A stretch of DNA of 64,000 nt from an uncultured delta proteobacterium (GTDB lineage Bacteria; Myxococcota; Myxococcia; Myxococcales; Myxococcaceae): assembly GCA_963771175.1 (NCBI GenBank), contig CAVYSY010000036.1, positions 62,385 to 126,384 on the forward strand, written 5' to 3'. Numbering within the stretch: position 1 is the first letter of the stretch; every line of letters starts with the position of its first letter. Below the pieces are notes generated by a model, which was not told where the DNA came from, searched no databases, and saw only the letters and a program-made list of their open reading frames with translations. Shown here piece after piece: positions 12,453-32,027 of this stretch. The translations under genes and the position numbers were made by a program.

Positions 12453-12602
12453 TGCAAAGGCAAGCCCTTTCTTCTGGCCTACCCGGGGCAGCGCCCAGTG
12501 TGTCAGCCAGACAACAAAACATGGAAGTCAAGTCTTTCTCGTTCCACGGGTTGCTGGCCATATCGCGCTGGAGTCCCCCCCACAATCCGACGGAGAAGAT
12601 CG

Positions 12603-14174
12603 ATGTCCTGGCTGCGTGTCATTGCCCTATCGGCCATGGTCCTGGCGCTGAGCCTCGGTACCACCCCCGCATCCGCCTCATCCTTCCGCCTCGCCAACAT
12701 CATGGTGCGCGATGGAGTGGTGCTGGATGCGAATGTCTTTACCCCCGACACGCCGGGGCCGCACCCTGCGATCATCTTCATCACCAGTTGGGCGTTGCCC
12801 AACATCGAGTACCTCGTGCAGGCCCAGCAGTTCGCCGACGCCGGGTACGTCGTGCTCTCGTACACCCCCCGCGGCTTCTACACCTCGGGCGGTTACATCG
12901 AGACGGCTGGGCCCAAGGACGTCAGCGATGTGAGCGACATCATCGACTGGCTGCTCACCAACACCTCCGCGGATCCGGCGCGCATCGGCGCGGCGGGCAT
13001 CTCGTATGGCTCGGGGATCAGCCTGCTCGGCTCCGCGTTCGACTCGCGCATCCGTGCCGTGGCCGCCGTGAGCACGTGGACCGACCTCCAGTACTCGCTG
13101 CTCGCGAACCAGACCCGCCACCAGCAGGCCGCCGGGCTGCTGAAGCTCTCCGGCGTGCTGACGGGGCGGCCCTCGGCGGAGCTGCAGCAGATTCTCTCGG
13201 ACTACTTCGACAACCGGAACCTCGCGGGGATCAGCGCCTTCGCCCAGGTGCGCAGCGCCGCGACGTACCTCGACCGCATCAACGCGAACCGCCCCGCGAT
13301 CCTCATCGCGAACGCCTATGGCGACAGCCTGTTCGCGCCCAATCAGCTCTCCGACTTCTACACCCGGCTGACGGGGCCCAAGCGGCTCGAGCTGCGCCCG
13401 GGAGATCACGCCATCCCGGAGCTGACCGGCGTCCTCGGTCTGCCCAATGACGCATGGACCAGCGTGCACCGCTGGTTCGACTACTACCTGCGTGGCGTGA
13501 ACACCGGCATCGCCGCGGAGAAGCCGGTCCAGCTCCAGGTACGTGGCCAGAGTGGCTACGAGGCCTATTCGTCGTGGAGTGAAATCTCGACGAGCACCGC
13601 GCGCTACAACCTGGGCGAGGTGAACTGGTGGAACGGCGAGGGCGAGCTCGTGTCGAGCGCGCAGACCGGCTGGAGCCGGACGGTCTTCGCGGGCGACGAC
13701 ACCGTCGCCAACGGAGGCATCGTGATGCTGACGAACGGCGCCGAGGCGCTCACGGGTGAGCCGCCGATCGCGTGGATTCCCGCGGTGGACCGGGACAACG
13801 CGGGCGTCTGGCAGTCGGGCTCGCTGACGAGTGCGCGCCGTCTGCGTGGGGCCGCGCACCTGCGCCTGACGGTGACTCCGGGCAGCTCCGGGCAGACGAC
13901 GATCATCGCCTACCTCTACGACACGGACGCGCTCGGGACCGGGCACCTGGTGACGCATGTGGCCTACACGATCCGGGGCGCGGTGGCCGGCCAGGCCTAC
14001 ACCGTGGACACCGACTTCCCGGCCACGGTCTACGACGTGCCGAGCGGGAACCGGCTCTCGCTCGTCGTCGACACCGTCGACCCGCTCTACGCCGACCAGG
14101 GAGCGCTGTTCACCTCGGTGAAGTTCTCCTCGCCGGGGACCAATCCGTCCTACGTGTCGCTGCCGCTCAAGTAA
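12603..14174 (+). CDS. Secreted CocE/NonD (peptidase S15-like) alpha/beta hydrolase
   Basis: Signal peptide MSWLRVIALSAMVLAL..ASA, MVRDGVVLDANVF, nucleophile motif GISYG, C-terminal jelly-roll domain. Confidence 0.85.
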   Translation: MSWLRVIALSAMVLALSLGTTPASASSFRLANIMVRDGVVLDANVFTPDTPGPHPAIIFITSWALPNIEYLVQAQQFADAGYVVLSYTPRGFYTSGGYIETAGPKDVSDVSDIIDWLLTNTSADPARIGAAGISYGSGISLLGSAFDSRIRAVAAVSTWTDLQYSLLANQTRHQQAAGLLKLSGVLTGRPSAELQQILSDYFDNRNLAGISAFAQVRSAATYLDRINANRPAILIANAYGDSLFAPNQLSDFYTRLTGPKRLELRPGDHAIPELTGVLGLPNDAWTSVHRWFDYYLRGVNTGIAAEKPVQLQVRGQSGYEAYSSWSEISTSTARYNLGEVNWWNGEGELVSSAQTGWSRTVFAGDDTVANGGIVMLTNGAEALTGEPPIAWIPAVDRDNAGVWQSGSLTSARRLRGAAHLRLTVTPGSSGQTTIIAYLYDTDALGTGHLVTHVAYTIRGAVAGQAYTVDTDFPATVYDVPSGNRLSLVVDTVDPLYADQGALFTSVKFSSPGTNPSYVSLPLK

Positions 14175-14227: not shown

Positions 14228-16394
14228 TCAGGGATGCGCGATGACGATGAGCGTTGACGCCCGAGCTTCGACGCACGTCATCACCTTGCGCATGGTCACG
14301 GGGTCCAGCGCACCGAACGCCTCGTCGAGCACCACGACACTGGCCCGCTGCAGCAGCGCCCGGGCCACGAAGACACGGCTCTGCTCCCCATGCGAGAGCT
14401 GCCACCCGCTCTCCCCGACCAGTTGCATCAATCCCGAGGGCATCCGGGCCAGCAGCTCCCCCAGCCCCAGCTCCTCACAGAGCGCTCGGGCGTTTTGCAG
14501 ATCCTCCTGCGAGGGAGGCCAGGCGCGGCCCAACAGCAGGTTCATGGCCAGCGTGCCGGACACCACGTGGTTCTCGTGGAACTGAGGAGCACTGGCGATC
14601 TGCGCGCCCCACCCGTGCGACGTCCAGGTCGCCATGTCCAGGCCTCCCAGCAACAACAGCCCCGAGCCCTGGCCCCTCAACCCCGTCAGGATGGAGGCGA
14701 ACGTCGACTTGCCCGAGCCAGAGGGCCCCTCGAGCAGCACGCGCTCTCCCGAGCGAACCACCAGAGAGGCCCGCTCGAGCACCGCCCGTGGCGCCCCCGC
14801 GTGCTTGAAGACCAGATCGCGCACCTCGAGCAGGGCCTGGGCCTTCGGGGGCGCCGCGCCTGGGGAGAGAGGAGAGGCGCGGGTCACCCTGCCCTTCTCG
14901 CTCTCACGGGCCGCCTCTCCCGAGGCGTTGGAGCGCTTCGCGGCATCCAGGATGGGACGCACGCTGTGAAACAACACGCGCGCGCCGCTGAGGGCCAGGG
15001 CTCCGGTGGTCAGCGCCGCCAGCGCGCGCGTCGCCATGAGCGCGGCCCCCACTCCCACGGCGATCCTCGCGGTCGAGGCTCCCGCGAGCACGCCTGGGAG
15101 CGTCGCGAGGATCGCCACCGGGAGGAGTCCCCGCCTGGAGAGCGCCACCACCCGCGCCGTCGCCGCGTCCCACTGCTCGGAGGCCTCGGCATAGTGGGCC
15201 AGCTCATGGTCCTCCTCCTCGTGCCAGCGCGCCGGCAGCTCCTGCGCGAGCCGCGTCCGGTGGCCGAGCATCCGCTCGATGAGCGCATGCGTCATGACGA
15301 CCCGCGCCTCCGTCCACCTGCGGAAGCGTGAGCGACTGGCGCGCGATCAGCACCGCCAGCAAGCAGCAGAAGCCCCCCAGCACCAGCAGCCCGAGCCAGC
15401 CCGCGGGGCCGGTCACCATCACGCTCGCCGCCAGCACCAGATCGATCGCCGCCAGGAGGCTGGTGAAGCTGCCCACCAGCGCCATCTGCTCCATCCCCGC
15501 GCTCTCGAAAGTCCTCCCGACGTACTCGCCAATTCCACCGCGGCGCGCCTCGTCCACGGGCAGCGCGAGCGCCCCCGCCAGCAGGTCGCCTGCGCAGCAG
15601 CGCGGAGAGGTCCATCGCCAGGGACCCCTGCGACCAGGCCAGCGCCGCCTGGAGCGGCACCATCGTCAACCCCATGAGGGCCCAGGCCCAGAGCCACCCA
15701 TGGTCGAGCTGCCCATTGAACGCGCCCCGTCCAATCAACCACCAACCGGCGAGCAGGCACACCTGGACGACCACCGCCAGCAGCAAGAGCAGGACCAGCC
15801 GCCGTCCGGCCCGCAGCGACCGCAGGTGATGGACCAGACGGGCTCCAGGTGGCAGCCGGAGCGTGCGCGCGGCGATGAGGTGGGTATTGGCGAGCTGGGC
15901 TCCCAGCAACGCCCGCCGGGCCAGGGTCCGCTGGGGTGCCGGCAGTCCCGCTCGCTCCAGGACGCGATCGGCCACGGGCCCCTGTTGCGCCCTCGACGAT
16001 CGCCTGCACGGCGGCGGTCAGCAGGGAGAAGGGAACCTCGTGCGGCGTCTCATCCGGGGCGATGAGGTCCGCGGCTCTCCCCCGAGGGGGACACGCGAAG
16101 CAGTGCGAGCACCCTACGCCCCTGGGTGCTCGGCACATCCACGAGGGCCGGGGCCGCGCGGCCCAGGGCACGTTCCACTTCGCCGTGGCGCGTGTAGAGC
16201 AACTCCAACTCGAGCCCCAGCGCATGGGCCGAGGCGTCCAGCCACGCCCCCACGCGGCTCGGGTCCTCGGGTACCGCGCGCGAGAGGACCGGGAGCGGAT
16301 TGGGGAGCGGCAACCGCGCCGCACGCGCCAGCGCCTCCAGGGCTTCGCCCGCTCGCGCGAACGGCCAGGACACTGCGTCCAGCTCACCCGACAT
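14228..16394 (-). CDS. ABC transporter (fused TMD+ATPase), second subunit; split by about 4 indels
   Basis: Start MSGELDAVSWP overlaps the end of the upstream transporter. TM segments lie in ORFs 15292..15975 and 15204..15557. Walker A GPSGSGKS, signature LSHGE and LDE lie in 14228..15295. Confidence 0.8.
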
Positions 16395-19090
16395 GAGCCA
16401 CCCCCTCCTCCTCCTCCTCGTGTCGCTCGGAGAGCACGCCCTGCTCCAGGACCAGCCGCCTCCACCCCTCCCGCCTGGACAGCTCCCCCCGCATCGACGC
16501 CTCCTCATCCAGCAGTGCGCGGTAGTGGGAGTCCTCGCACGCCGCGAGCGCCTGGGGAGCCCCGTCCTCGACCAGCCTCCCGTCCTTGATGACCAGGACG
16601 CGGTCGAACGAGAGCGTCTCGGCGATGTCATGCATGATGCAGAGCAGCGTGGTCCCCTCGAATCCCTGTCGTGCCCGCTCCAACAGCGCCGTGCGACGGT
16701 CTCGCTCGAGTCCCCGGAACGGCTCGTCGAAGATGGCCAGCCGCACCCCTGGCCGGAGCAACGCCCGGCCCAGGCGCACCCGCTGCCCCTCACCGCCCGA
16801 CAACAGACTGCCCCCCTCGCCCAGCCGGGTCTCGAGCCCCTGGGGCAGCTTGTCGAGCAACTCGATGAGGTCGGCCCTGTGCAGCACCTGGCCCACCCGG
16901 GGCAGCACCTCGGCCTCGTCGGCGCCATAGGCGAGGTTGTCCACCAGGGACTTGTTCCAGAGCGTCACCTCGGGCTCCAACCACGCCGTCTCCCGCCTCA
17001 GCCGCCACAGGGCCGCCCCCTCCAGCGGCTCGCCATCCACCTCGACGCGGCCCGCGGCCGCCGGTGCCAGCCCAGGAGGACTGCCCACCAGTGACGATTT
17101 CCCAGCGCCCGAGGGGCCCACGATGGCGACGTGCTCCCCGGGTTGAACCGAGACATCAATCCCTTGCAGGAGGGTGTGGCCCCCGGCCTTCACCTCCACC
17201 TGACGCAGCGAGAACCCAACCCCCCGAGCCCCTTCCACCGGTCGCTCCGTCTGTCCTGGGGTGGCCAGCGCGACGCTCGTGGACACCTCGTCCGGAGCGA
17301 GCAGTGGCTCCATCAATCGGCCAGTGAACGACGAGGCGGCGGGGTACTGGCGCAACGCCTCGGCGATCTGCTTGCCCAGCGTCGGCACGGCGAGCGCCCA
17401 GTAGACGAGCAGCAGGACAGCCCCGGGTTGTACCCCCTTCGAGAGGGCGTGCAGGACAATGACAACCGAGCCCCCGGTGGCGGCGAGGGAGGCGAGCGTG
17501 TCCGCCGTGGTGCTGCGGCGCAGCAACGTGCGGGCCGCGGAGATGAACTCGTGCAGCGGCTCCTCATGAGCCCGGCGGAGCGTCAGCTCGGCATGGTGCG
17601 CCCGCAGCGCCACGGCCCCGCGCAAGGCGTCGAGGTAGAAGCGCGAGAGCACCCCGTCGAAGTCCCGCATCCGGCGATCGGCTTCGAGCAACGAGCGCTG
17701 CGCGACGAGGGGGATGCCGAGCGCCAGCCCACCCGCCAGGAAGATCAAGGGGGCGCTTCGCGGAGCCAACCACGTCAGCCCCACGAGCGTCACGAACAGC
17801 TCGGCGGCGGCGCGCAGCACCAGGGCCGCGAGGTTGGGCACGTTGCGCACCATGTGGATGCCATGGCAGCGCTGGGCCATGTCCGAGATGAGCCGGCTGC
17901 GGAAATAGCTGTCACCCAGGCGTGGGATTTTGTCGAGGAACGCGAGCCGGAGGCGGAGTTCCAACCGCCGTCCCAGGCGGAGCGTCCCGAGAGAGAGAGG
18001 CAGCTCGATCGCGAACAGCACGCCCATCAGGACGAGCAGCGTCACGACGCCGGCGATCCGCTGTTCGGTGGTCGTGAGATAACGACCCGCGTCGATGACC
18101 CCGCGCAGGAGCAGCGCCTCCAGGAAGCCGCCCACCGCCGCGGTCACCCCCATGGCGGCGAGCACCCTCGGCGTGAGCACCCCGTCCCGGCGCATCAAGG
18201 CCACGAGCTCACGCAGGGGGCGGGTGGGCGCCTCCTTCAAGACGGCCTCGAGCCCCGGAGACAGCGGGGGTTCATCCTCCCCGTGCTCGCCGCGCAGCCC
18301 CTTCGCCCGGATGCAGACGACGCCGCGCAAGGTGATCTCCTCGGCGTCCGGCCCTCCCACCGCCGTCCAATAGGCGGGGGGAATGAGCTCCTCGGCGCGA
18401 CCCTCGTCCAGGGCCGTGCGCACCTCGAGCAGGAGCTGCTCGACGAACGCCGCCGCCGTCTCGCCAGGCTGGAGGCCGTCACCCTCCACGAGCGTCTGCA
18501 CCAACCGCACCGTCGCATCCAGGCAGGCCAGGCCCTTCCAGGTGGAATCCCCGAGCGCCTCGGCGACGAGTCGCTCCGACAACGGCCCCTCGACGAGCTC
18601 GGACAGCCTGCGACGCAGACCCACGAGGAACTCCTCCGTGCCGGCCCACTCCCGGAACCCCTCGGCGGACACGGGCATCGCGTGCACGAAGCACCGGTCG
18701 AGCAGCTCGGCGGCGGACACCCACCGCCGCCCCAGCGCCGGATCCATGATCTGGACGCGGTTGCCCCACTTCTTCCAGAGCACCACGAAGTGCAGGTTGC
18801 CGTCCGCGAGCCTCACCACCACGATGGCCGGCAGCGCCCCGGTCTCCTCGAGGAGCAGGTGATCGCGCGGGAGCATGCCCTGCTCCGCATCCAGCCCGAG
18901 GCTGACGGCCAGCTCCTCGAGCACATCCATGGACGTGCCGTCGACGTCGGTCTGGCAGAGCTCTCGGAGCCGTCCATAGCTGACCGGCACGCCGGAAGCC
19001 GCCGAGCAGGGCCTTGAGGGCCGCCGGACCGCAGTCCATGGCCGACGTCTGGATGACTTCTGGAACGAAAAGACGTGGTGCACCCGCCAT
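16384..19090 (-). CDS. Peptidase C39-containing ABC transporter (PCAT); frameshift near 18995
   Basis: MAGAPRLFVPEVIQTSAMDCGPAAL (catalytic Q..C), HFVVL (His), MDPA (Asp), then TMD, Walker A GPSGAGKS, LSGGE and FDE. Confidence 0.88.
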
Positions 19091-19093
19091 GGC

Positions 19094-20290
19094 TCAGCTC
19101 CCCCCCTTCGGCGACTCCGTCCCGCCCTCTACCCGCAGGACCCTGGGTTGCTCCCGTGCCGGACGGTCGAGCCCCCGACCCAAGGTGCGAAGCACGAGCT
19201 GCGACGGCGTGGCCTTCCCCACCGCGACGTCCACGAGGCCAGGCAACCCATGCTCGAGCGGAATGCCCGGCGGCAGCTCATCCACCGAGAGCTCGACTCG
19301 CACCAGGCCATCGCGAGGCTCACTCGCCACCGCCACCACCGTGGCCTCCAGCATCCCGAACTCCGCCCAGGAGAAGCCCTCCAACCGCATGCGAGCCCGC
19401 TGACCCTCGCGGATACGCCCCAGGGCCTCCGGGGAGAACTGCGCGACGACGCGCACGGGTCCACCGGCGACGATGGTCGCGATGGGGTCACCGGCCTTGA
19501 GCTGCGCGCCCACGCGTACGGAGCTCGTCTCGCCGAGGACGCCATCCGCCGGCGCTCGAATGATACGGCGCTCCAGCTCCTCGCGCAGGCGCTCCACGTT
19601 GGCGCGCGCGACGCTCTCGTCCGACTCGAGCCGGGCAATCTCTCCCTGCAGCGCGGCGAGGCGGGTGCGCCGATCGGTGGACTGAATGCCACCTTCCGCT
19701 CTCACCCGCGCCAGCGTGGCCCGCGCGGCCTGCTCCGCGGCCAGGGACCGCTCCAGCTCCGTATGGGACCTGCTCCACTCCATCTCGCTCAACACGCCCC
19801 GCTTCCAGAGCCGCTCGGTGGTGGACTCCTCCTCCTTGGCCCGCCGCGCGACCGCCTCGGCATCGATGAGCCGGGCCCGCGCCTCCTCCACGCCCGCGAT
19901 CCCCTGCCCTTTTTGCTCCACCAGGCCATGCTGCTCGGCCTCGAGCTCCGCGCGCGCCGCCTCGAGCTGAGGCCCCAGTCCTTGAAGCACGGCCTCCGCC
20001 TCCGCTACCCGGCGCTCCTCCTGCACATGCTCCAGCTCGACGAGCACATCTCCCGCATGCACGGGGCGGTGAAGCTCCACCTGCGTCTTCACCACCCGTC
20101 CCGCCACGGGTGCATCAATGGCGTACACCTCGCCATGGAGCTCCAGACGCGCCTGCGCGCTGCGCTCGTAGACGATGATGCGCGCCTGGAGGAACCAGCC
20201 CCCCCAGATCGCGAGCAGCCCCACCGGTATCAGCCAGAGCGCCGGCCGCCCGCGCCCGCGCACCAGGGCGCGCCAGGTGCGTGGAAACAT
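19094..20290 (-). CDS. HlyD-family membrane fusion (secretion adaptor) protein
   Basis: N-terminal TM, IDAPVAGRV and IRAPADGV lipoyl-like halves, long alpha-helical hairpin. Start codon uncertain. Confidence 0.88.
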   Translation of the reverse strand: MFPRTWRALVRGRGRPALWLIPVGLLAIWGGWFLQARIIVYERSAQARLELHGEVYAIDAPVAGRVVKTQVELHRPVHAGDVLVELEHVQEERRVAEAEAVLQGLGPQLEAARAELEAEQHGLVEQKGQGIAGVEEARARLIDAEAVARRAKEEESTTERLWKRGVLSEMEWSRSHTELERSLAAEQAARATLARVRAEGGIQSTDRRTRLAALQGEIARLESDESVARANVERLREELERRIIRAPADGVLGETSSVRVGAQLKAGDPIATIVAGGPVRVVAQFSPEALGRIREGQRARMRLEGFSWAEFGMLEATVVAVASEPRDGLVRVELSVDELPPGIPLEHGLPGLVDVAVGKATPSQLVLRTLGRGLDRPAREQPRVLRVEGGTESPKGGS

Positions 20291-20456
20291 GCCTTCGACC
20301 TTCAAGTGGCTGGCCAAATCGCCCCCCGTCTCGACCGTGCCGTCCTGCGGATGGAGGGGGCCCGTTGGCTTTGTCAGGGAGAGTGACGCTCCGAGGGAGC
20401 GGCCTGCTCGTCCTCCAGGCAGGCGTCTCGCCCAGGCATTCCGGAGGTGCCTCGCG

Positions 20457-20516: not shown

Positions 20517-22328
20517 ATGAGTCAGAACGCTGTATCGGTTGATCCCCACGAGACGCTGTACCTGCCCCTGCGGCGTCGCTTCATGAGCGAGTACGTGACC
20601 ACGCCCGAGGGCACCCGGGAGCTGCGCATCTTCTACGGCCTCAAGGAGATCACGATCGATGAGCCGGACCTGCTCTCCTTCGGAGAGAACCTGCTCAAGC
20701 AGGACGAGTTCATGGCGGGCAGCGCCACCCTATGGAGCGAGGGTGAGCCCTACCCCTGGGAGCGCGTGAGGGAGCTGCTCGAGGCGCTGCTGGACGAGGA
20801 GATTCTCTCGCGCGAGGCCCCGAAGCCCGCGCCTTCGGAGAGTGACGTTCATCGAAGCTGGATGGAGGCCGAGGCCCGGCGGGTCGCGCCCACCGAGCCC
20901 CTGTGGTGGAACCCGGACTGTCCCCGGGTCATGGAGCGGTTGGTGGGGCGGCCGCTGGAGTTGGGCTTCCTCGAAGCGGTGATTCCGGTGCATCGCGTCG
21001 CCCACCCGGCGCTCGACGCGGAGGGGCGCCATATCGGGGAGAGCAACGTCTTCCCCGACGCCATGCGAATGAAGCTTCCGACGGATTGGCGACCGTGCCC
21101 CTACCCGGGCAGCCGCTATCGGGACGAGGCGATGATGAACGTGACGGCGCTCAAGTCGATGACACGGCACTGGAAGTCCGTGTTGCAGGGGGTGCTCGCG
21201 GTGCGAGAGGAGTTCCTGCGCCACCATCCCCTGCTCCCGGACGGGCGCTGGCGGCTGGGGGATCTTCACGCCCTGTGCTGCGCCGTGCTGGCTCTACCAA
21301 CCCTGCGGTTGATGCGCGCGAACGCGCCCGTGCCCAATGGCGAGCTGGATCCCGTGCTCTCCTCCATGTTCCGGGTGACGGACGGCGTGCGGATGGTGAC
21401 GGCCTACATGCTCTTCCTCCCGGAGCTGCCGATGCCGTACGACACGCCCATGACGGCGGCCGAGCTGCTCCGCTTCACCGAGCAGGACAATCACTTCCTG
21501 TCGACGCGGGGCGTCTGCGCCGGTCCCCCGCACATGGTGGAGGAGTTCCTCGCGACGCTGATGGATGGCAAGCCCGTGGCGGGCGTGCCCAGGCCCGCGG
21601 AGGAGTGGGACGACGAAATCCCCACGGCGATGGATTACGGGATGCGGGGACTCCAGCTCTATTGCCTCCAGTTCAACCTGTGGAGCCACATGTGCCGCGC
21701 CTACGAGTCGATCCGCGCGGCGCTGCTCGACGTGGAGGATGAGCCGGGTGGAATCTGGAGCCGGATGCGCGCGCGTGTCGAACGCGATTGGGCGATGATC
21801 CTGCCCACGCGACTGCACACCTCCACCCAGCGAGATTGGGCAGAGGCCCGCTACATCGAGATGTTCGATCAGGCCCAGCGCGGCCTGAAGGGCTTCCGGG
21901 AGGACGCGCTGCTTCGCTTGCAGGACGTGTTCACCCCCGCGAGGGACGAAATGGATGGGAAGACCCGCCGGCAACTCCGACAGATGCTCCGCTCGCTCGC
22001 GGGCTCGCCCCCGGGGGCCCGGAGAGACGCCCTCGACACCATCGCGGACGCCGCGGCGGAGTTCCTGGCCCTCGAGCGCTCAACGCTTCGCGCCCTGGAA
22101 GGTGTTCAGCGCCAGGTCAATGCGTTGCTCCAGCGCCCCCATCCAGCGCGAAAGTTCTCCAGCGCGGATCTCTCGCTGCATCTCCGCCTGCGCCAGGGCA
22201 CCATCGGCGTGCTGCCCTACCTGCTGGATGTATTCCGGGATGAGCTGGGCATCGTCGTCGAGAATACGGAGGACGACACCCGCTGCGATCTGGTCAGCTC
22301 GCCCTACCAGCAGGTAGCCCAGATGTGA
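20517..22328 (+). CDS. Uncharacterised 603-aa protein, candidate RiPP maturase (possible N-terminal RRE/winged-helix)
   Basis: Clean ORF with typical codon bias directly upstream of three precursor genes. The N-terminal ~100 aa end in PWERVRELLEALLDEEIL (wHTH-like). Cys/His-containing segments: HRVAHP, WRPCPYPGSRY, MNVTALKSM, GVCAGPPHM. The ORF is well supported; the function is inferred. Confidence 0.7.
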   Translation: MSQNAVSVDPHETLYLPLRRRFMSEYVTTPEGTRELRIFYGLKEITIDEPDLLSFGENLLKQDEFMAGSATLWSEGEPYPWERVRELLEALLDEEILSREAPKPAPSESDVHRSWMEAEARRVAPTEPLWWNPDCPRVMERLVGRPLELGFLEAVIPVHRVAHPALDAEGRHIGESNVFPDAMRMKLPTDWRPCPYPGSRYRDEAMMNVTALKSMTRHWKSVLQGVLAVREEFLRHHPLLPDGRWRLGDLHALCCAVLALPTLRLMRANAPVPNGELDPVLSSMFRVTDGVRMVTAYMLFLPELPMPYDTPMTAAELLRFTEQDNHFLSTRGVCAGPPHMVEEFLATLMDGKPVAGVPRPAEEWDDEIPTAMDYGMRGLQLYCLQFNLWSHMCRAYESIRAALLDVEDEPGGIWSRMRARVERDWAMILPTRLHTSTQRDWAEARYIEMFDQAQRGLKGFREDALLRLQDVFTPARDEMDGKTRRQLRQMLRSLAGSPPGARRDALDTIADAAAEFLALERSTLRALEGVQRQVNALLQRPHPARKFSSADLSLHLRLRQGTIGVLPYLLDVFRDELGIVVENTEDDTRCDLVSSPYQQVAQM

Positions 22329-22402: not shown

Positions 22403-22513
22403 ATGAAGATCAAGACGAAGATTCGGGGTGGTGCGCGCACGTGCTTCGGTGGCATCTTCGGACCCATCGTCGTTCGCCCCCCAGTCCTCCGACCGCCCAT
22501 CTCCCTCGCGTAG
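22403..22513 (+). CDS. Double-glycine precursor peptide 1: MKIKTKIRGG-ARTCFGGIFGPIVVRPPVLRPPISLA (36 aa)
   Basis: Strong SD (AGGAGGAG) upstream; leader nearly identical to precursors 2 and 3. Confidence 0.85.
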   Translation: MKIKTKIRGGARTCFGGIFGPIVVRPPVLRPPISLA

Positions 22514-22547
22514 AAGAATCCAGGGAGAAGGATCCGCGTTTGATTCA

Positions 22548-22583
22548 AGTCGCCAGTGGGCGGAGCATCGCCTGCTGGCGACT
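22548..22583 (+). terminator. GC hairpin after precursor 1 (no clear U-tract)
   Basis: AGTCGCCAGTGGGCG-GAGCAT-CGCCTGCTGGCGACT; near copy of 22919..22954. Confidence 0.55.
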
Positions 22584-22645
22584 GTGTCTTGCGGGGTACG
22601 GCTCGTCGTCCCACACGGGCCTTTTGAAAACAACTCAGACAAAAA

Positions 22646-22709: not shown

Positions 22710-22778
22710 ATGAAGGTCAAGACCAAGGTTCGTGGTGGTGCTCGGATGTGCAGCGGCGGCAGCGGCACTTTCTTCTAG
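22710..22778 (+). CDS. Double-glycine precursor peptide 2: MKVKTKVRGG-ARMCSGGSGTFF (22 aa)
   Basis: CTCAGGAGGAGCAAACAC-ATG ribosome-binding context; synonymous differences relative to precursor 3. Confidence 0.85.
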   Translation: MKVKTKVRGGARMCSGGSGTFF

Positions 22779-22828: not shown

Positions 22829-22894
22829 ATGAAGATCAAGACCAAGATTCGGGGCGGAGCTCGCTCGTGTAGCGGCGGCGGCACCTTCTTCTAG
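22829..22894 (+). CDS. Double-glycine precursor peptide 3: MKIKTKIRGG-ARSCSGGGTFF (21 aa)
   Basis: Identical CTCAGGAGGAGCAAACAC-ATG context; tandem paralog of precursor 2. Confidence 0.85.
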   Translation: MKIKTKIRGGARSCSGGGTFF

Positions 22895-22918
22895 CAGCAG
22901 AAGTACCCGTTGAATTCC

Positions 22919-22960
22919 AGTCGCCAGTGGGCGGAACATCGCCCGCTGGCGACTCTTTTT
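22919..22960 (+). terminator. Intrinsic terminator after precursor 3
   Basis: AGTCGCCAGTGGGCG-GAACAT-CGCCCGCTGGCGACT followed by CTTTTT. Confidence 0.75.
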
Positions 22961-22981
22961 CGTGGGAGGGTCTGGAGGGGA

Positions 22982-24484
22982 CTACCCGGCGGCGGCGGGA
23001 GAGACAGGGCGCTGCACCTGTACGCCGGGCAGCATGGGCGCCGGGTTGAGCGACAGGATGAGCAGGCTGCGCAGGGCCTCCTTGAGGTCCTCTCCCACGC
23101 TGGCCGCCCCCGCCGGTGCGCCCTGCAGCTCCGCCGGCACCGGGTGGCCCACCACCACCACCGGAATGCGGACGTCCCACGCCAGGAAGTACGCCAGCTT
23201 CACCGCCGCCTCCGACGTGTCGAACAGCAGCGCCCCCGCGGCTCCCGAGCTGAACGGCCGCCACAGCGGCCTCGCCGCCTCCGCCGGAGGCAGCACGCAG
23301 AAGTCCAGGTGCAGCAGCTCGTGCAGAGCCATCCGCCCCAGCGTCCCGAAGCCGCTCTTCACCGCGGGGGGCTCGGCCGCCACGGCCGCGATGTCCGGCA
23401 TCTGCGACAGCAGCCGGCGCGCCACCGCCGGACCACTGCCGCACACGAAGATCTTCGCGGTGGCCTCGCGCGAGGCGCCCTTGCCCCGCAGGATGCGTCC
23501 GCGCAGCGCGTGCAGCTCGGCGGGCCCCATCAGCGGGCCGCTGTGCCCCTCCTCCGTCTCCCCCTCGGCTACGCGGGCCACGCCCTTCTGGAGGAGCGTG
23601 TGCAGCACGCCCACCACCTCCAGGTCCGTGGCCGGCGCCAGGTCCAACACCTCGCCCACCGCCCGGGGCTGGCGCAACAGCTCCACCACCTGCGCCGTCA
23701 CCGGGTGCTGGTCCTGCGTCAGGTCCGCGTCCGGCGCGAGCACCAGCCGGGCGTTGCGCGGCGGCAGCCCCGGCAGCAGCCGGTTCACCTCGTCCGCCTG
23801 GCGCATCGCCTCCAGCAGCGAGTCGTCCATCCCGCGCTGGATGCGCGGCTTTCCCCCGCTGCCTCCCGGCGCGAAGGTGAACGAGCCCTCGGCCCACACC
23901 AGCAGCCGGAAGAGGGCCTTCTCTCCCTCGGCCCGGCCCACGCGCGCGTTCGCCGGGCGGCCCTCCACCACCGATATCTCTCCGCGCTCGTTGCCCCGCT
24001 CCAGCGTCAGCTTCCCGCTGCGCTTGTTCATCCCCAGAATCTGCATCAGGTCCGGGATGCTGAGCTGGCTGAGCGAGCCTTCGATCTCCTGCACATCGCT
24101 CTTGAGGTCCTTCGCCGCCTCGTTGCGGCGGAAGACGTGCTCGATGCGGGAGAGCACCTCGTCGATGTTGAAGGGCTTGCGCAGGTAGCCCTCACGCAGG
24201 CCACGGGCCTTGTCCGCCTCGAACCTGCCGGTGGAGACCAGCACCGGGATGTCATCCGTGCGCGGGTTGGTGCGCAGGATGTTGATGAAGGTGCGCGCGT
24301 CCAGCAGATGGCACGCCTCATCGAAGAGGATGAGCTCCGGGTGGCGCAGCACGGCCACCTCCAGGGCCCGCGAGCCATCCGGCGCGTAGTGCACCTGGTA
24401 GCCCTTGGTGCGCAACGCACGGGAGAGCGGGCGGACCGACTCGAGATCGGGGTCGGCGATGAGGATCTTTCGAACCTGGGCCAC
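22982..24484 (-). CDS. Atypical response regulator: receiver + DUF4388 + degenerate small-GTPase-like C-terminal domain
   Basis: KILIADPD...LILFD...YLRKPF receiver. IEGSLSQLSIPDLMQILGMNKRSGKL is typical of DUF4388. C-terminal KIFVCG...LWRPFSSGAAGALL. Confidence 0.8.
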   Translation of the reverse strand: MAQVRKILIADPDLESVRPLSRALRTKGYQVHYAPDGSRALEVAVLRHPELILFDEACHLLDARTFINILRTNPRTDDIPVLVSTGRFEADKARGLREGYLRKPFNIDEVLSRIEHVFRRNEAAKDLKSDVQEIEGSLSQLSIPDLMQILGMNKRSGKLTLERGNERGEISVVEGRPANARVGRAEGEKALFRLLVWAEGSFTFAPGGSGGKPRIQRGMDDSLLEAMRQADEVNRLLPGLPPRNARLVLAPDADLTQDQHPVTAQVVELLRQPRAVGEVLDLAPATDLEVVGVLHTLLQKGVARVAEGETEEGHSGPLMGPAELHALRGRILRGKGASREATAKIFVCGSGPAVARRLLSQMPDIAAVAAEPPAVKSGFGTLGRMALHELLHLDFCVLPPAEAARPLWRPFSSGAAGALLFDTSEAAVKLAYFLAWDVRIPVVVVGHPVPAELQGAPAGAASVGEDLKEALRSLLILSLNPAPMLPGVQVQRPVSPAAAG

Positions 24485-27266: not shown

Positions 27267-30200
27267 TCAGCCCTGCTCGTCGGTTTTCGGGTCGGAGGGA
27301 GCTGCCTCGGATGCCGGCGAACCGGCGGGCGAGGCGGGTGTGCTCCCCTTTGGGCGGCGAAGTAAATCATTCTTCACCGCGTTGATCTCGGCGTTGGCCC
27401 GCGCGTAGATGTCCTGAACGGTGTTCGACCCCGCCCGGGCCGAGCTGCGCTTGAGCGTGGCCAGTTCGGACGCCTGTCCCTCCAGGCGCTGCTGCTGCTC
27501 CGCGATTGCCGCATCGCGCTCGGCCAGGGTGGCCTGGAGGGTCTCGAGCTCGCTCTGCAGGCGCTCCACTTCCTCGGACAGCTCCAGCACGGCCTCGGAG
27601 TCCGATACCGGCTTGCGCGTTTCGAGCTGCTTGATCTTCTCCCGCAACCCGGCCCGCTCGCTCTCGAGGGCCTGGAGCCGAGCCCCCAGCGCCTCGGCGG
27701 CCTGGGCCTGCTTCGCCTTCTCCGTACGCTCGGCGTCGAGGAACTTCACCGCCTCCGCGGAGGCCGCCTCCAGCGCGGTCACCCGGCCCTCCAGACGGAT
27801 ACGGGCCGCGCGGGCCACCGTGAGATCCGAGCTGAGCCGCTCACGCTCGGACACGAGCCCGGCCTTCTCCGATTCCAGCTTCGCGAACTGCTCCTGCACG
27901 GCCTGCGCGGAAGCCTCCCGCTCCCGGGCCTGCCGCTCGACCTCGTTCGCCTTGGACTCCAGCTCGGCCAGCTTCTCCTTCGCGGAGGCCTCCTGCTCCC
28001 GGGCCTGCTGTCTGGCTTCATCCGCCAAGGCCTCCAGCTCGGCCAGCTTCTCCTTCGCGGCCTCCAGACTGGCGGTGGTCTCCGAGAGACGGACCTCGAG
28101 CTGGCTCGCCGACTGCTCCGCCTCCGAGACCCGCTCCCGCTCCGCCTCGGTGGCCGAGTGGGCCCGGACCAGCTCCGCGCGTACGTCCTCGAGCTGGGCG
28201 CGGGTGGCCTCGACAGCCGCGCGCTCCTTCTCCAGCTCGGCCCGGGCGGCCTCGACCGCCGCGCGCTCCTCCTGGAGGGCGGATTCGAGAGAGGGCGCCT
28301 TGCCCGCGATACGCCGCGCCGATTCGAGCTGCACGGTGAGCAGCTCCGCCTGCTCGTGCTCCGCGGTGAGCCGGGCCTGGGCCTCGGTCAGCTCCGTCTG
28401 GAGGTGCGCGATGTGGGCATCGCGATCGCGCAGGCCCATGTGGGCTTGCTGGAGGGCCATCGAGGCCTGCTGTGCCTGGAACCGGGCGGCCTCGAGCTGT
28501 CCCACCTGGGCCCGCAGCACCGCCAGCTCCTCGTCCTTCCTCGCGAGGTCGTCCCGGAGCCCCTCCAGCTCCACCCGGGACTCCACCGCGTCGCGCTTCC
28601 GGGCCTCGCGCTCCGTGGAGATGGCCTCCTCGCGCGCACGGGCCTCCGCGAGCCGCGCCTCGGCCTCGCGCAGCTTCTCCTCGAGCTCGCGGGCGCGCGA
28701 GTCCAGGCCAGAGGCCCGGGTGGTCTCGGCCTCGTGCTCGGAGCGCAGGCGCGTGAGGGCCTCCTGCTGCTCCTTGGACGTGCCGCGCTCCCACTCCAGG
28801 CTCGACCGGAGCTCCTCGACGAGCTGCTTCTGCTCGACCAGGGCGACGCCGAGGTCCTTCCCCTCGCGCAGGGCCGTCTCCAGCTCCTCGCGCAGGGCCG
28901 CGGCCTCCTGCCGGGCCACCTCCAGGGCCTCGAGCCGCGCCCGCTCGCGTTCGTCCGCGCCCGCCCGGGCGGACTCCAGGTCCGCGCGCGCCTCGGCCAG
29001 CGACTGCTCCACGGCCTCGCGCCCGGTGCGCTCCGAGTCCAGCTCGCGCCGGGTCTCCGCGAGGGTGGCCTCCACCTGCTCGCGTCCCTGCTGCTGGGAC
29101 TCCGCCTCGGTACGGGCCTGGGCCAGCGAGGCCTCCAGTGCTTCCCGCTCCCGCCGTGCCTCTTCGAGCTCCGCCTCGGTCCGGGCGCGCTGCCGCCGCT
29201 CGGTATCGAGGTCCGTCCGGGCGGTACCGAGCGAAGCCTCGGTCTGCGCCTTGCTCTCGCGCTCCCACTCCAGCTCGGCGCGGGCCGATGCGAACGACTC
29301 CTCGGCCTGGGTGCGCTGCTTCCGCTCGGCGTCGAACTCCGCGCGAACCGACGCGAGCGACTCCTCGGCCTGGGTGCGCTGCCGCCGCTCGGTGTCGAGC
29401 TCCGCGCGGACCTGCGTGAAGGCCTCCTCCGACTGCCCATGCACCTGCTGCGCGGAGTCGAGCTCGGCACGGGCGGAGGCCAGCGCGGCCTCGAGCCCGG
29501 TGCGCTGCCGACGCTCCGATTCGAGCGCGGACCGCTCCTGCGCCAGGGTCTCCTCCACCTCGGCCCACTGCCGCCGCTCCGATTCGAGCTCGGCCCGCTC
29601 CTGCGTCAGAGCCGCTTCCACCCCGGCCCGCTGCTGCCGCTCCCCTTCGAGCTCGGTCCGGGTCCTCGCGTTCTCCTCATCCACCAGGAGACGCTGCTGC
29701 CGCTCCGCCTTCAGCTCCGCCCGGGCCCTCGCGAGCGACTCCCGCGCCTCCGCGAGCTGCTGCCGCTCCCCCTCGAGGTCCGCCTGCGTCGACGTCCCCG
29801 CCTCCTCCAGCAGGGTGCGCTGATTCCGCTCGACCTCGAGCTCGGCCTGGACTCGCGCCAGGGCCTCTTCCAGCCGCGCCCTTCCCTGCTGTTCGAGCGC
29901 GAGCCCGGCCAGGGCCTGCTCTCGGGCCTCGTCCGCCTTCGCCCGCTCCTGCTGCTCGGCCGCGATGGTGCCCTGCGTCGCCTTCAGCGCCGCGTCGAGC
30001 CGGGCGATCGACTCCACGTCCGAGGCCCGCGCCCGCTCCAGCTCGGTGAGCGTCGCCTCGGCCTCCACCACGCGCCGCCGTAGGGCACCACGCTCATCGG
30101 CCCACTCCTGCCGTTGGGCCTCCAGCTCGGCGAGGACGCGCGCCGCCTCCTCGCGCGCGGCCACCTCCACCGCCATCTGGTTCTCGAGCCCCTCGGCCCG

Positions 30201-32027
30201 ATGCTGCTGGGCCTCGCGCGCGGCCTTCTCCCGAGCGGCCTCGGCAACAGCCGCCTCCGCCCTCGCCAGCGCCTCCGCGACCGCCTGCTCCAGCCGCTCG
30301 TCCGCGAGCCGGCGCTCTTCCTCGATCGCCGCCTCCAGCTCCGCCGCGGCGTGGACCCGCTCCTGCTCGTGCGACTCCAGGCGAGCCTGGGCCTCGTGAA
30401 GGGCCTGCTCGAGCTTCGCGGCCGCCGCCCGGACGTGCTCCTCCGCGCGCGAGCGGGCCTCCACCTCGGCCTGGAGCTGCTCCACCCCGGCGCGAGCCGC
30501 CGTGAGCTCCGTCTCCAGCCCCCGCCACTCGGCCTCGCGCGCGGTCAGACGAACTTCCGCGTCCCGCCGGCCCGCCTCCGCGGACGACACGCGCCGGGCA
30601 CCGTCCTCCACCTCGCGCGACATGCGCGCCAGGTCCGCGTCGCGCGAGCGCAGCAGCTCCTCGGCCGCCTTGCGCGACGCCTCGGCCCGGGTCACGTCCG
30701 TCTTGAGGTGCTCCACCGCGGCGAGCGCCGTGGAGTACTGCTCGGCGATGCGCAGCTCGCGCTCGCGGGCCGCCTCCGCCTGCCGCCGCAGGTCCTCGAG
30801 CTGCTCCCGAGCGCGCTCGGTGACGAGCCGGTCCTTCTCGCGCTCGACGCGCAGGCCGGCCATCTCGTCCTGCAGCTCGCGCAGGTGGGTGTACGCCTGG
30901 GTGAGGCGCTCGCGCGACTCCTCCAGGGAGGTGTTCAGCTCCTCGCGGCGCGCCCGCTCCAGCCGCAGCGCCTCCTGGGAGCCCAGGGTCTGGATGTCCG
31001 CGTCCTTCCGAGCGCGCTCGGCGGCCTCCAGCTCCAGTCGCTGCTGGGTGAGGCGCCGGTCCGCGTCGGACACGCGCTCCAGGGCCACCTGCAGCTCCAG
31101 CTCGGTGCGGCGCAGGCGGGAGGACAGCTCGTCGCGCTCGCGGGTGGACTCGGGGGTGCCGCGCGCCTGCTCCAACTGCGCGGTGAGCCGGGCCACGTCG
31201 TCGCGGGCGATCTCCAGGGCGGGCTTGAGCTGGGTCACCTCGGTCTCGCGGTCGGTCAGCTCCGCGCGCAGCCGGGTGAGGGACTCCTTGAGGCGACCGG
31301 TGCGCTCCTCCCAGCCCTTGGCGCGCTGGGCCACCTCGTCCAGCTTGCCGCGCGTGAAGGCGAGCGGCTCGGGCGGCAGCTGCACCCAGGTGGGGTCCAC
31401 GATGCGCGCCGGCTCGTGGCCGGCCACCACGACGAAGTAGGCCGCCTCGCTGCCGCGGATGAGGGTGCCGTCCACCGGGAGGCCCTCGCCCTTCTCGAAG
31501 GCGAGCTGGTAGCCCAGCACCGGGGACTGGGTGGCCACCTCCACGTGGGGGAAGTGCGGCGAGAGCGCGTCGAGGAGCTGCCCGTACGTGGGCGGCACGC
31601 CCTCCTCGAGGTCCATGAGCTGCCAGAGCGCCAGCCCCGCCGCGTTGCGCAGGCCGCCGAGGAGGTAGCCCTGCCGATTCACCAGCCGCGCCAGCTCGGC
31701 GAGCAGCGTGGGTGCGCGCACGTAGGGCGCGAGGTCCGCGACGAGCACCAGGTCGAAGCTGCCGGGCTCGAGGTCGTCGTAGACATTGGCGCGGTAGCGC
31801 AGCGTGGCGCTGCCATGGGCCTTCTGCGCCGCCTCCACCGCCTTGAGGTCCGCGTCGCAGGCCACCACGGTGCGGGCCCCGCGCTCCAGGAGGAAGCGCG
31901 CGCTCTCGCCACCGGTGGTCGCGACCGCGTCCACTTCGAGCACGCGGCGGCGTGCGAAGAGGCTCTCCGCGAAGATGTACCGGGGCAACAGCTCGCTGGT
32001 CCCCAGGCGGCGGAATGTGGGATGCAT
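27267..32027 (-). CDS. Methyltransferase-like domain fused to a ~1300-aa coiled coil
   Basis: N-terminal class I SAM-MTase-like fold (RRVLEVD...VVACD...GSFDLVL), then E/A/R-rich heptads. Confidence 0.85.
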   Translation of the reverse strand: MHPTFRRLGTSELLPRYIFAESLFARRRVLEVDAVATTGGESARFLLERGARTVVACDADLKAVEAAQKAHGSATLRYRANVYDDLEPGSFDLVLVADLAPYVRAPTLLAELARLVNRQGYLLGGLRNAAGLALWQLMDLEEGVPPTYGQLLDALSPHFPHVEVATQSPVLGYQLAFEKGEGLPVDGTLIRGSEAAYFVVVAGHEPARIVDPTWVQLPPEPLAFTRGKLDEVAQRAKGWEERTGRLKESLTRLRAELTDRETEVTQLKPALEIARDDVARLTAQLEQARGTPESTRERDELSSRLRRTELELQVALERVSDADRRLTQQRLELEAAERARKDADIQTLGSQEALRLERARREELNTSLEESRERLTQAYTHLRELQDEMAGLRVEREKDRLVTERAREQLEDLRRQAEAARERELRIAEQYSTALAAVEHLKTDVTRAEASRKAAEELLRSRDADLARMSREVEDGARRVSSAEAGRRDAEVRLTAREAEWRGLETELTAARAGVEQLQAEVEARSRAEEHVRAAAAKLEQALHEAQARLESHEQERVHAAAELEAAIEEERRLADERLEQAVAEALARAEAAVAEAAREKAAREAQQHRAEGLENQMAVEVAAREEAARVLAELEAQRQEWADERGALRRRVVEAEATLTELERARASDVESIARLDAALKATQGTIAAEQQERAKADEAREQALAGLALEQQGRARLEEALARVQAELEVERNQRTLLEEAGTSTQADLEGERQQLAEARESLARARAELKAERQQRLLVDEENARTRTELEGERQQRAGVEAALTQERAELESERRQWAEVEETLAQERSALESERRQRTGLEAALASARAELDSAQQVHGQSEEAFTQVRAELDTERRQRTQAEESLASVRAEFDAERKQRTQAEESFASARAELEWERESKAQTEASLGTARTDLDTERRQRARTEAELEEARREREALEASLAQARTEAESQQQGREQVEATLAETRRELDSERTGREAVEQSLAEARADLESARAGADERERARLEALEVARQEAAALREELETALREGKDLGVALVEQKQLVEELRSSLEWERGTSKEQQEALTRLRSEHEAETTRASGLDSRARELEEKLREAEARLAEARAREEAISTEREARKRDAVESRVELEGLRDDLARKDEELAVLRAQVGQLEAARFQAQQASMALQQAHMGLRDRDAHIAHLQTELTEAQARLTAEHEQAELLTVQLESARRIAGKAPSLESALQEERAAVEAARAELEKERAAVEATRAQLEDVRAELVRAHSATEAERERVSEAEQSASQLEVRLSETTASLEAAKEKLAELEALADEARQQAREQEASAKEKLAELESKANEVERQAREREASAQAVQEQFAKLESEKAGLVSERERLSSDLTVARAARIRLEGRVTALEAASAEAVKFLDAERTEKAKQAQAAEALGARLQALESERAGLREKIKQLETRKPVSDSEAVLELSEEVERLQSELETLQATLAERDAAIAEQQQRLEGQASELATLKRSSARAGSNTVQDIYARANAEINAVKNDLLRRPKGSTPASPAGSPASEAAPSDPKTDEQG
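28960..29900 (-). repeat. About a dozen degenerate 63-bp (21-aa) coding tandem repeats
   Basis: Units such as RAELDTERRQRTQAEESLASV / RAEFDAERKQRTQAEESFASA / RAELESERRQWAEVEETLAQE. Confidence 0.75.

Follow-up and report, generated by a model that had tools for sequence, protein, structure and literature searches.

A 603-residue bacterial protein encoded next to short conserved-leader peptides is a candidate maturation enzyme of an undescribed peptide family

Results

Gene organization at the locus

We analyzed a 64,000-nucleotide stretch of DNA from an uncultured member of the Myxococcota (contig CAVYSY010000036.1, positions 62,385 to 126,384; referred to below as the window), with a focus on the gene for a 603-residue protein (20517-22328, + strand) and the short peptide genes downstream from it. 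The window has a G+C content of ~70% and its nearest relatives are Archangium and other Myxococcota. The open reading frame (ORF) for the 603-residue protein is real: it begins with an ATG that has GGAG 7 nt upstream, the starting methionine is matched by an equivalent methionine in homologues, and the third-position G+C content (0.86) is the same as that of neighboring genes. The product is a soluble, acidic protein of 68.9 kDa (isoelectric point of 5.4) with no membrane segment (maximum hydropathy of 1.44).

Apart from this gene, there is no non-transport gene between a set of HlyD and ATP-binding cassette (ABC) transporter genes on one side and three small ORFs on the other, as had been pointed out in an earlier note on this DNA. 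The small ORFs are on the + strand at 22403-22513 (36 residues: MKIKTKIRGG followed by ARTCFGGIFGPIVVRPPVLRPPISLA), 22710-22778 (22 residues: MKVKTKVRGG followed by ARMCSGGSGTFF), and 22829-22894 (21 residues: MKIKTKIRGG followed by ARSCSGGGTFF). Each is preceded by the Shine-Dalgarno sequence AGGAGGAG, and all three begin with MK[IV]KTK[IV]RGG, a segment with four basic residues that we refer to as the leader.

The 603-residue protein belongs to a large unnamed family

The protein is a member of a large, unnamed bacterial family, of which its gene is the signature, and not an orphan as the earlier note had called it. A word-indexed search (8000 scored candidates) yielded 390 homologues at E≤1e-3, and all of the 120 that were listed carried the source name 'hypothetical protein'. 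A profile search of 1.84 billion representatives of 50%-identity clusters yielded 1094 matches at E≤1e-3, including 728 at E≤1e-10 and 204 at E≤1e-30. When one genome per species was scanned, there were 227 pattern matches, 196 of which encode a relative of the 603-residue protein as confirmed by tblastn. Several genomes have more than one copy.

We sampled the loci of the best 80 of these 196 relatives, which gave 76 distinct loci (identified by L numbers), many of them short contigs. This sample is the basis of all locus counts below. According to the record titles, the loci are from Myxococcota, Gamma-, Beta-, and Alphaproteobacteria, one Planctomycetota bin, and one Acidobacteria bin. Two loci, L053 and L054, are the same in their match coordinates, identities, and precursor peptide, in bins labeled Planctomycetota and Ectothiorhodospiraceae, respectively, and are probably one contig that was binned twice. 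Because of this likely duplication, the range of phyla taken from titles of metagenome-assembled genomes (MAGs) is uncertain and needs to be read with care.

Short peptides with a conserved leader are encoded next to the family gene

Genes of the family are tightly linked to genes for short peptides. The association with MKIKTKIRGG peptides that had been suggested for the window extends across the family. Using a first regular expression, we found small ORFs with this type of leader beside the homologue at 70 of the 76 loci. A relaxed expression added two loci with variant leaders, ending in G-A and A-N, so that a peptide ORF adjoins the family gene at 72 of 76 loci from several phyla, compared to three matches to the regular expression in a control with the same 1.15 Mb reversed. 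Four loci had no peptide match, and in two of these, L060 and L061, the sequence stops 116 bp and 2 bp, respectively, past the gene. The loci have 1-11 peptide ORFs each, with 11 tandem copies in L071. Together, the window and the loci contain 162 leader ORFs (150 unique). In the fetched loci, 156 of 159 peptide ORFs are on the same strand as the family gene, mostly 60-150 bp downstream, and a Shine-Dalgarno motif precedes 151 of the 162.

The peptides have a short, conserved N terminus and a hypervariable tail that usually contains a single cysteine. They are 15-57 residues long (median of 25), and in all 150 unique peptides the conserved N-terminal block is 10 residues, with the pattern M-K-[IV]-K-[TS]-x-[IVL]-R-[GAS]-G. 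K2 is present in 136, I or V at position 3 in 149, K4 in 133, and R8 in 123. Position 5 is Thr or Ser in all 150, although the regular expression permitted seven residues there. Position 9, which the search pattern limited to G, A, or S just as it fixed Gly10, is A in 70, G in 69, and S in 11.

Glycine and proline are abundant in the tails. There is exactly one cysteine in the tail of 138 of the 150 peptides and at least one in 145. An arginine is within two residues of a cysteine in 138 peptides, preceding the cysteine in 112 and only following it in 26, and the segment after the cysteine ranges from 0 to 37 residues. Tails diverge even between close relatives: the protein at L001 is 81% identical to that in the window, yet its peptides end in RRGCPI and RRGCFY compared to ARSCSGGGTFF and others in the window.

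Three loci encode a second kind of peptide upstream of the family gene, with the same leader and no cysteine (L051, 7706-7819; L065, 7625-7729; L066, 6941-7042). These are methanotroph-type loci (titles Crenothrix and Methylococcaceae). Two of the three peptides are rich in His, Asp, and Gly (...DDAPGHVR...); the L066 peptide has no His.

In the window, an intrinsic-terminator-like hairpin (22919-22954, + strand; 16-pair stem followed by a T-run) closes the operon of the 603-residue protein and the peptides. A GC-rich copy of this hairpin without a strong T-run follows the first peptide ORF (22548-22583, + strand). The two are parts of a 59-nt segment that is repeated with 83% identity, at 22537-22595 after the first peptide ORF and at 22908-22966 after the third, with a T-run in the second copy only. 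The repeated hairpins may be an attenuator and terminator pair that sets the ratio of peptide transcript to enzyme transcript.

Invariant residues define a candidate active site

The central part of the protein is conserved in a pattern that is more like that of an active site than of a scaffold. We compared 74 full-length sequences (that of the window and 73 of the 79 clustered ORFs of 540-900 residues), and 32 positions were invariant in all 74. In the core region (about residues 125-375, encoded at 20889-21641, + strand) the invariant residues include E153, H163, D167, E175, R184, C194, R200, N208, W219, S282, R286, D289, C334, and Y374; R540 is likewise invariant. C334 is within an invariant block, G-V-C-x-G-P. 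We take these invariant residues of the core to mark a candidate active site. The motif-like strings singled out in the earlier note (WERVRELLEALLDEEIL, HRVAHPALDAEGRHIGESNVFP, WRPCPYPGSRY, MNVTALKSMTRHW, and STRGVCAGPPHM) are all present in the translation and coincide with invariant residues (H163, D167, E175, C194, R200, N208, W219, and C334). The suggestion that the Cys and His residues in these strings are functional, made as a conjecture, thus gains from their invariance throughout the family. Metal-activated thiol chemistry with an anionic co-substrate would, speculatively, suit an invariant His and two Cys accompanied by acidic residues and many Arg.

The protein has no match to known families

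The protein could not be assigned to a known family, as the earlier note had also found. There was no match in Pfam at E≤0.01 and none in NCBIfam, Pfam gave nothing consistent for 44 aligned family members, and PADLOC gave no match for three members. Searches of PDB sequences with the protein and with a profile gave no true family match; matches to DUF5610 (E of 0.31) and apolipoprotein A-I (E of 0.002, helices 375-495) were rejected as spurious low-complexity helical matches. Nine precursors (the three encoded in the window and six encoded at other loci) had no match in NCBIfam, and no peptide or enzyme that we checked matched a curated family. Papers matched by the leader and core motifs or by keywords contained no description of the family in their titles and the openings of their abstracts, with subscription-only papers outside the search. 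Within these libraries and this part of the literature, we found no description of the enzyme family or its fold, nor of the leader of ten residues or the core with a single cysteine.

An AlphaFold2 model made from a 44-row alignment had a predicted local distance difference test score (pLDDT) of 90.7 and a predicted template modeling (TM) score (pTM) of 0.89. The model has an N-terminal alpha/beta domain and is mostly helical after that. Mean pLDDT is >90 across residues 130-190 within the conserved core, and Cys334 directly precedes a helix (338-350). In the ESM Atlas, the whole protein matched winged-helix clusters weakly, with scores ≤0.83, below the stated reliability level. Predicted complexes of the protein with the 36-residue precursor gave values of 0.10 and 0.21 for the interface score ipSAE, compared to a mark of 0.32; these were run without controls and count neither for nor against binding.

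The N-terminal domain is predicted to be a winged helix

Residues 1-108 are predicted to form a winged helix with the topology of a RiPP recognition element (RRE), the leader-binding domain of many enzymes that act on peptides that are made on ribosomes and modified after translation (RiPPs); it cannot yet be counted as a member of the RRE family. The domain covers about residues 10-97 (20544-20807, + strand). A model of isolated residues 1-108 (40-row alignment) had a pLDDT of 90.2, with four strands and then three helices. In both models, DSSP placed strands at 13-15, 22/23-28, 34-40, and 43-47, followed by helices at 50-59, 67-72, and 81-93. This is the arrangement of an RRE, a domain of 80-100 residues with an antiparallel beta-sheet and then three alpha-helices. 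The invariant positions within the domain are hydrophobic core residues (74 sequences), and acidic residues E35, E44, D48, and E57 are kept.

The proposal of an RRE- or PqqD-like N terminus was borne out in topology and not in family assignment. In a Foldseek search of the PDB, MINA53 and NO66, both ribosomal oxygenases, supplied the top matches with their winged-helix domains (E of 8.6e-4 to 0.06), the best being MINA53 (E of 8.6e-4; query TM score, TMq, of 0.59). RRE-bearing McbBCD, LynD, TruD, the PbtF RRE, TbtB, and PqqD were the next neighbors, with TM of 0.40-0.53 and weak E values of 0.1-0.5: McbBCD (6gri), E of 0.11 and TMq of 0.48; LynD (4v1v/4v1t), E of 0.3 and TMq of 0.52; the PbtF RRE (8t19), E of 0.34; and PqqD (5sxy), E of 0.46, TMq of 0.48, and target TM score (TMt) of 0.53. 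The ESM Atlas weakly indicated the same winged-helix families. The Pfam family PqqD did not match the window protein at E≤0.01 or any of the 44 members at E≤1.

Exporter genes often accompany the family and are disrupted in the window

Genes for a three-part exporter are next to the gene for the 603-residue protein, on the - strand: an HlyD-family periplasmic adaptor (19094-20305), divergent from the gene, a C39-peptidase/ABC exporter (16384-19090), and a second ABC permease/ATPase (14228-16394). The longest ORF for HlyD begins at an ATG at 20518 and overlaps the start of the 603-residue protein gene. Because relatives align only from about 20305, the true start is probably near there, which leaves a divergent intergenic region of 211 bp.

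By comparison with intact relatives at L009 and L021, a frameshift near 18994 detaches the first 32 codons of the C39-ABC gene, which carry the catalytic-Cys segment QTSAMDCGPAAL, and the reading frame of the second ABC gene changes at least four times from 16394 to 14231, making it an apparent pseudogene. The genes for the 603-residue protein, HlyD, and the three peptides are intact. Since ORFs of 1586 and 1297 codons are open elsewhere in the window, the breaks are concentrated in the exporter genes and are probably real decay and not general assembly noise; a local sequence error is possible.

The exporter has an N-terminal C39 domain with the catalytic Cys and His. Pfam Peptidase_C39 matched the window exporter with an E value of 4.4e-13, and the intact relative at L009 has both the Gln/Cys segment QTSAMDCGPAAL and the His/Asp segment HFVVL...DP. 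The NHLP-type C39-ABC family TIGR03796 was the best NCBIfam match of the L009 protein (E of 1.9e-49) and ranked fifth for the window protein (E of 2e-40). The leaders of the peptides end in a site of the Gly-Gly, Gly-Ala, or Gly-Ser type, with the Gly at position 10 set by the search pattern.

Using tblastn with the window proteins, we found the HlyD adaptor at 35 of the 76 loci, the C39-ABC exporter at 39 (E≤1e-5; 32 at E≤1e-50), and the second ABC protein at 36, including matches in proteobacterial loci at 35-50% identity. Genomes with several copies have pairs of family gene and peptides without their own exporter.

Accessory genes, fusions, and other neighbors

Accessory genes, identified by unbiased clustering of the locus ORFs with Pfam run on samples, track the subtype of peptide. 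A MauG/MbnH-like di-haem enzyme is encoded at 13 loci (for example, L013, 6126-7790; L036, 8408-10648; L057, 5657-7873; L050, 5592-7271; plus nine more); of its 14 ORFs, the 4 that were scanned all matched CCP_MauG. Its best NCBIfam match was to the MbnH family, below the cut-off. This protein of the di-haem cytochrome c peroxidase family is likely a periplasmic tailoring enzyme. A TolC-like outer-membrane factor is encoded at 10 loci (3 scanned), an S8 subtilase at 6 (2 scanned), and a UbiE-like methyltransferase at 4 (2 scanned). Fifteen loci (L039, L048, L051, L059, L064, L067, and nine others) encode long precursors that end in R-C-x-G-x; these are Ser/Gly/Asn-rich and end ...P-V-S-R-C-V-G-I. 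The S8 subtilase is present at 5 of these 15 loci and 1 of the 61 others, the UbiE-like methyltransferase at 4 of 15 and 0 of 61, and the di-haem enzyme at 0 of 15 and 13 of 61.

Some family members are fused to other domains. Among four cluster representatives (P0181, P0197, P0208, and P0191), three have a C-terminal HemK/PrmC-type protein methyltransferase (with DUF7059) and one has an N-terminal GNAT acetyltransferase. Two-component or sigma-54 regulators are common neighbors, with a response-regulator cluster at 12 loci.

Two other genes of the window were considered as part of the system and set aside. An S15/CocE-NonD hydrolase (12498-14174, + strand) next to the exporter genes has no homologue at any of the 76 loci and for this reason is probably not part of the system. 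A response regulator with DUF4388 (22982-24484) has a homologue at only 2 of 76. Farther away, where the G+C content of the window is highest (0.75, with AT skew down to -0.31), is an ORF for a 1586-residue protein (27267-32027, - strand) with an N-terminal methyltransferase domain; the remaining ~1450 residues have no Pfam match.

Discussion

Based on the large, conserved family and the adjoining peptides with a conserved leader and a single cysteine, we believe that the 603-residue protein is probably the enzyme that matures, in the cytoplasm, ribosomal peptide natural products of a family not yet described. The overall logic is of the known RiPP and bacteriocin type, in which a leader peptide is combined with a maturation protein and with export by C39-ABC. 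Precursor genes with a conserved leader and variable core beside a maturation gene, the general mark of a RiPP cluster, are present at 72 of 76 loci. The other general mark, a class-defining enzyme of a known family, was found with none of Pfam, NCBIfam, PADLOC, and the PDB sequence and fold searches.

We infer the following series of events, from leader binding to the chemistry at cysteine. The small downstream genes would encode precursors, each with a basic, strand-prone leader of ten residues (M-K-I-K-T-K-V-R-G/A-G) and a hypervariable tail. The RRE-like winged helix, which is rich in conserved acidic residues, would bind the leader, and the alternating basic sequence K-I-K-T-K-V-R would suit addition of a strand to the winged helix. 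The helical core, with His163, Cys194, Cys334, Asp, Glu, and several Arg, would then act on the cysteine or Arg-Cys site. As cysteine and its Arg neighbor are the only constant features of the core peptides, they are the likely site of reaction. The chemistry could be metal-activated alkylation of the thiol by the His/Cys/Cys site. The HlyD/C39-ABC/ABC set would cleave behind residue 10, at the Gly-Gly-type site, and export the product, removal of the leader by C39 being suggested by this site and the conserved C39 catalytic motifs. In some subfamilies there could be further tailoring, by the MauG/MbnH-like di-haem enzyme or by the S8 protease and methyltransferase.

Several observations weigh against this interpretation. 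Library and fold searches pointed to neither a catalytic activity nor a cofactor for the protein and to no known catalytic fold, and Pfam, NCBIfam, and PADLOC have no family for the protein. The modeling and fold search that the earlier note had recommended for the body gave a confident model and no fold match: Foldseek with the whole model found nothing in the PDB at E≤0.001 (best E of 0.068), the top rows being long helical proteins such as fumarases and transporters with TM of about 0.12, and residues 120-603 had no usable match in the ESM Atlas. The likeness of the N-terminal domain to RREs is weak in the models (E of 0.1-0.5), with winged helices from outside RiPP pathways as its best neighbors. 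Five of the 150 peptides have no cysteine. About half of the 76 loci have no exporter within 8 kb, and with its exporter genes frameshifted, the copy in the window may be non-functional as a system. Lastly, double-glycine leaders are usually longer than 10 residues (typically 15-30), and none of the 150 conserved blocks here is of that length, so the conserved N terminus may have some other role.

The invariant residues could also be those of a protease or transpeptidase, in which the Cys of the nucleophile-elbow-like G-V-C-x-G-P together with His163 and an Asp or Asn cuts or cyclizes the peptide near Arg-Cys. C194, C334, H163, D167, N208, and D289 are all invariant, Cys334 is just ahead of helix 338-350, the Arg near Cys in 138 of 150 peptides could determine specificity, and the tails of 0 to 37 residues after the cysteine vary as a removable follower might. 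However, no peptidase family or fold was matched in Pfam, NCBIfam, or the PDB searches, the Arg is before the Cys in 112 and only after it in 26 of these 138 peptides, which does not give a single cleavage rule, and the almost entirely helical model is unlike known cysteine-protease folds. We consider this unlikely. It is also quite unlikely, in our estimation, that the protein is not an enzyme at all and is instead a leader-binding chaperone or export adaptor that passes unmodified GG-leader peptides to the exporter, or a producer immunity protein. Such a role would fit the failure to detect a cofactor or catalytic family, the tight linkage of the gene to those for the peptides and exporter, and the use of C39-ABC exporters by unmodified class II bacteriocins as well. 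A chaperone, however, would be unusual in having an invariant run of polar residues (His, two Cys, Asp, Glu, Asn, Ser, Tyr, and five Arg) across phyla at 35-40% identity. Moreover, a site-specific interaction is implied by peptides that conserve Arg-Cys and are otherwise hypervariable, and the size of the protein and the fusions to protein methyltransferase and GNAT domains better fit a modification pathway.

A cytoplasmic peptide receptor and transcription regulator similar to those of the RRNPP family, with the winged helix binding DNA and the helical body sensing re-imported peptide, would account for the order of genes (receptor and then peptide), the winged helix at the N terminus, and a body that is mostly helical, and regulators are often nearby, including the response-regulator cluster at 12 loci. 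But hypervariable peptides should be accompanied by a variable pocket, and the core is invariant instead; the conserved part of the peptide is the part that would be removed at export; the strands of the winged helix come before its helices, as in RRE domains; and neither the window protein nor the 44 members have a TPR or HTH match in Pfam. We regard a receptor as very unlikely.

Comparisons to known systems help to place the proposed maturation enzyme. It resembles RRE-dependent RiPP enzymes (PqqD/PqqE, LynD/TruD, McbBCD, TbtB, and PbtF) in the N-terminal winged helix of ~90 residues, with strands and then three helices, and in the gene adjoining precursors with a conserved leader and variable core. 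It differs from them in that the 603-residue protein has no sequence match to PqqD or a known catalytic partner, its body has no fold match in the PDB, the leader has only 10 residues, and the RRE matches have weaker E values than those to MINA53 and NO66. The exporter resembles NHLP/Nif11-type export sets (TIGR03794, TIGR03796, and TIGR03797) in having HlyD, C39-ABC, and a second ABC protein and a Gly-Gly-type substrate site. However, the scores are far under the curated cut-offs (for example, 168 versus 853 bits), and the precursors, with 15-57 residues in total, have no NHLP or Nif11 leader domain. There is also a likeness to class II bacteriocin and competence-pheromone systems, which pair a GG-leader peptide with a peptidase-containing ABC transporter, in the short secreted peptides, tandem variable copies, and export with leader cleavage. 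Those systems need no cytoplasmic partner of 600 residues, whereas here the cytoplasmic partner is the most conserved component and is present even without a nearby exporter.

Zinc-dependent thiol-alkylating enzymes, namely LanC cyclases and protein prenyltransferases, are comparable by analogy only. Enzymes of this LanC-like kind have an alpha,alpha-toroid or barrel fold and a zinc site of Cys/Cys/His (or Asp/Cys/His), for which H163, C194, and C334 could be candidates here. They share an all-helical body, an invariant His and two Cys with acidic residues, and single-cysteine substrates, and the ...R-C-x-G-x ends of one subfamily of peptides resemble a CaaX box, with a protease and methyltransferase nearby. 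As differences, many of the peptides here have long tails after the cysteine, and there was no LanC or prenyltransferase among the 38 Foldseek rows listed (ranks up to 48) and no family match.

We see a substantial chance of the catalytic domain being categorically new. A broader proposal, which we make tentatively, is that these proteins may be a new class-defining family of RiPP enzymes, widespread in Myxococcota and proteobacterial MAGs, with a fold absent from the PDB, guided by a 10-residue leader, and reacting with a lone, Arg-flanked cysteine. To our knowledge, such a leader would rank among the shortest conserved leaders. As part of this proposal, the subfamily with peptides ending ...P-V-S-R-C-V-G-I could parallel CaaX processing: alkylation of the cysteine, trimming, and methylation, the latter two by the S8 protease and methyltransferase, would make it a bacterial counterpart of the eukaryotic pathway.

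If the interpretation as a maturation enzyme is correct, then a family with >1000 50%-identity clusters and 196 species-representative loci would become directly testable as a new RiPP class, probably with new cysteine chemistry on a new fold. Its leader would be a simple, portable recognition tag of 10 residues on substrates that are naturally hypervariable. A rule for annotation that combines the enzyme with an adjoining MK[IV]K[TS]x[IV]R[GA]G peptide would find hundreds of small genes that are currently uncalled.

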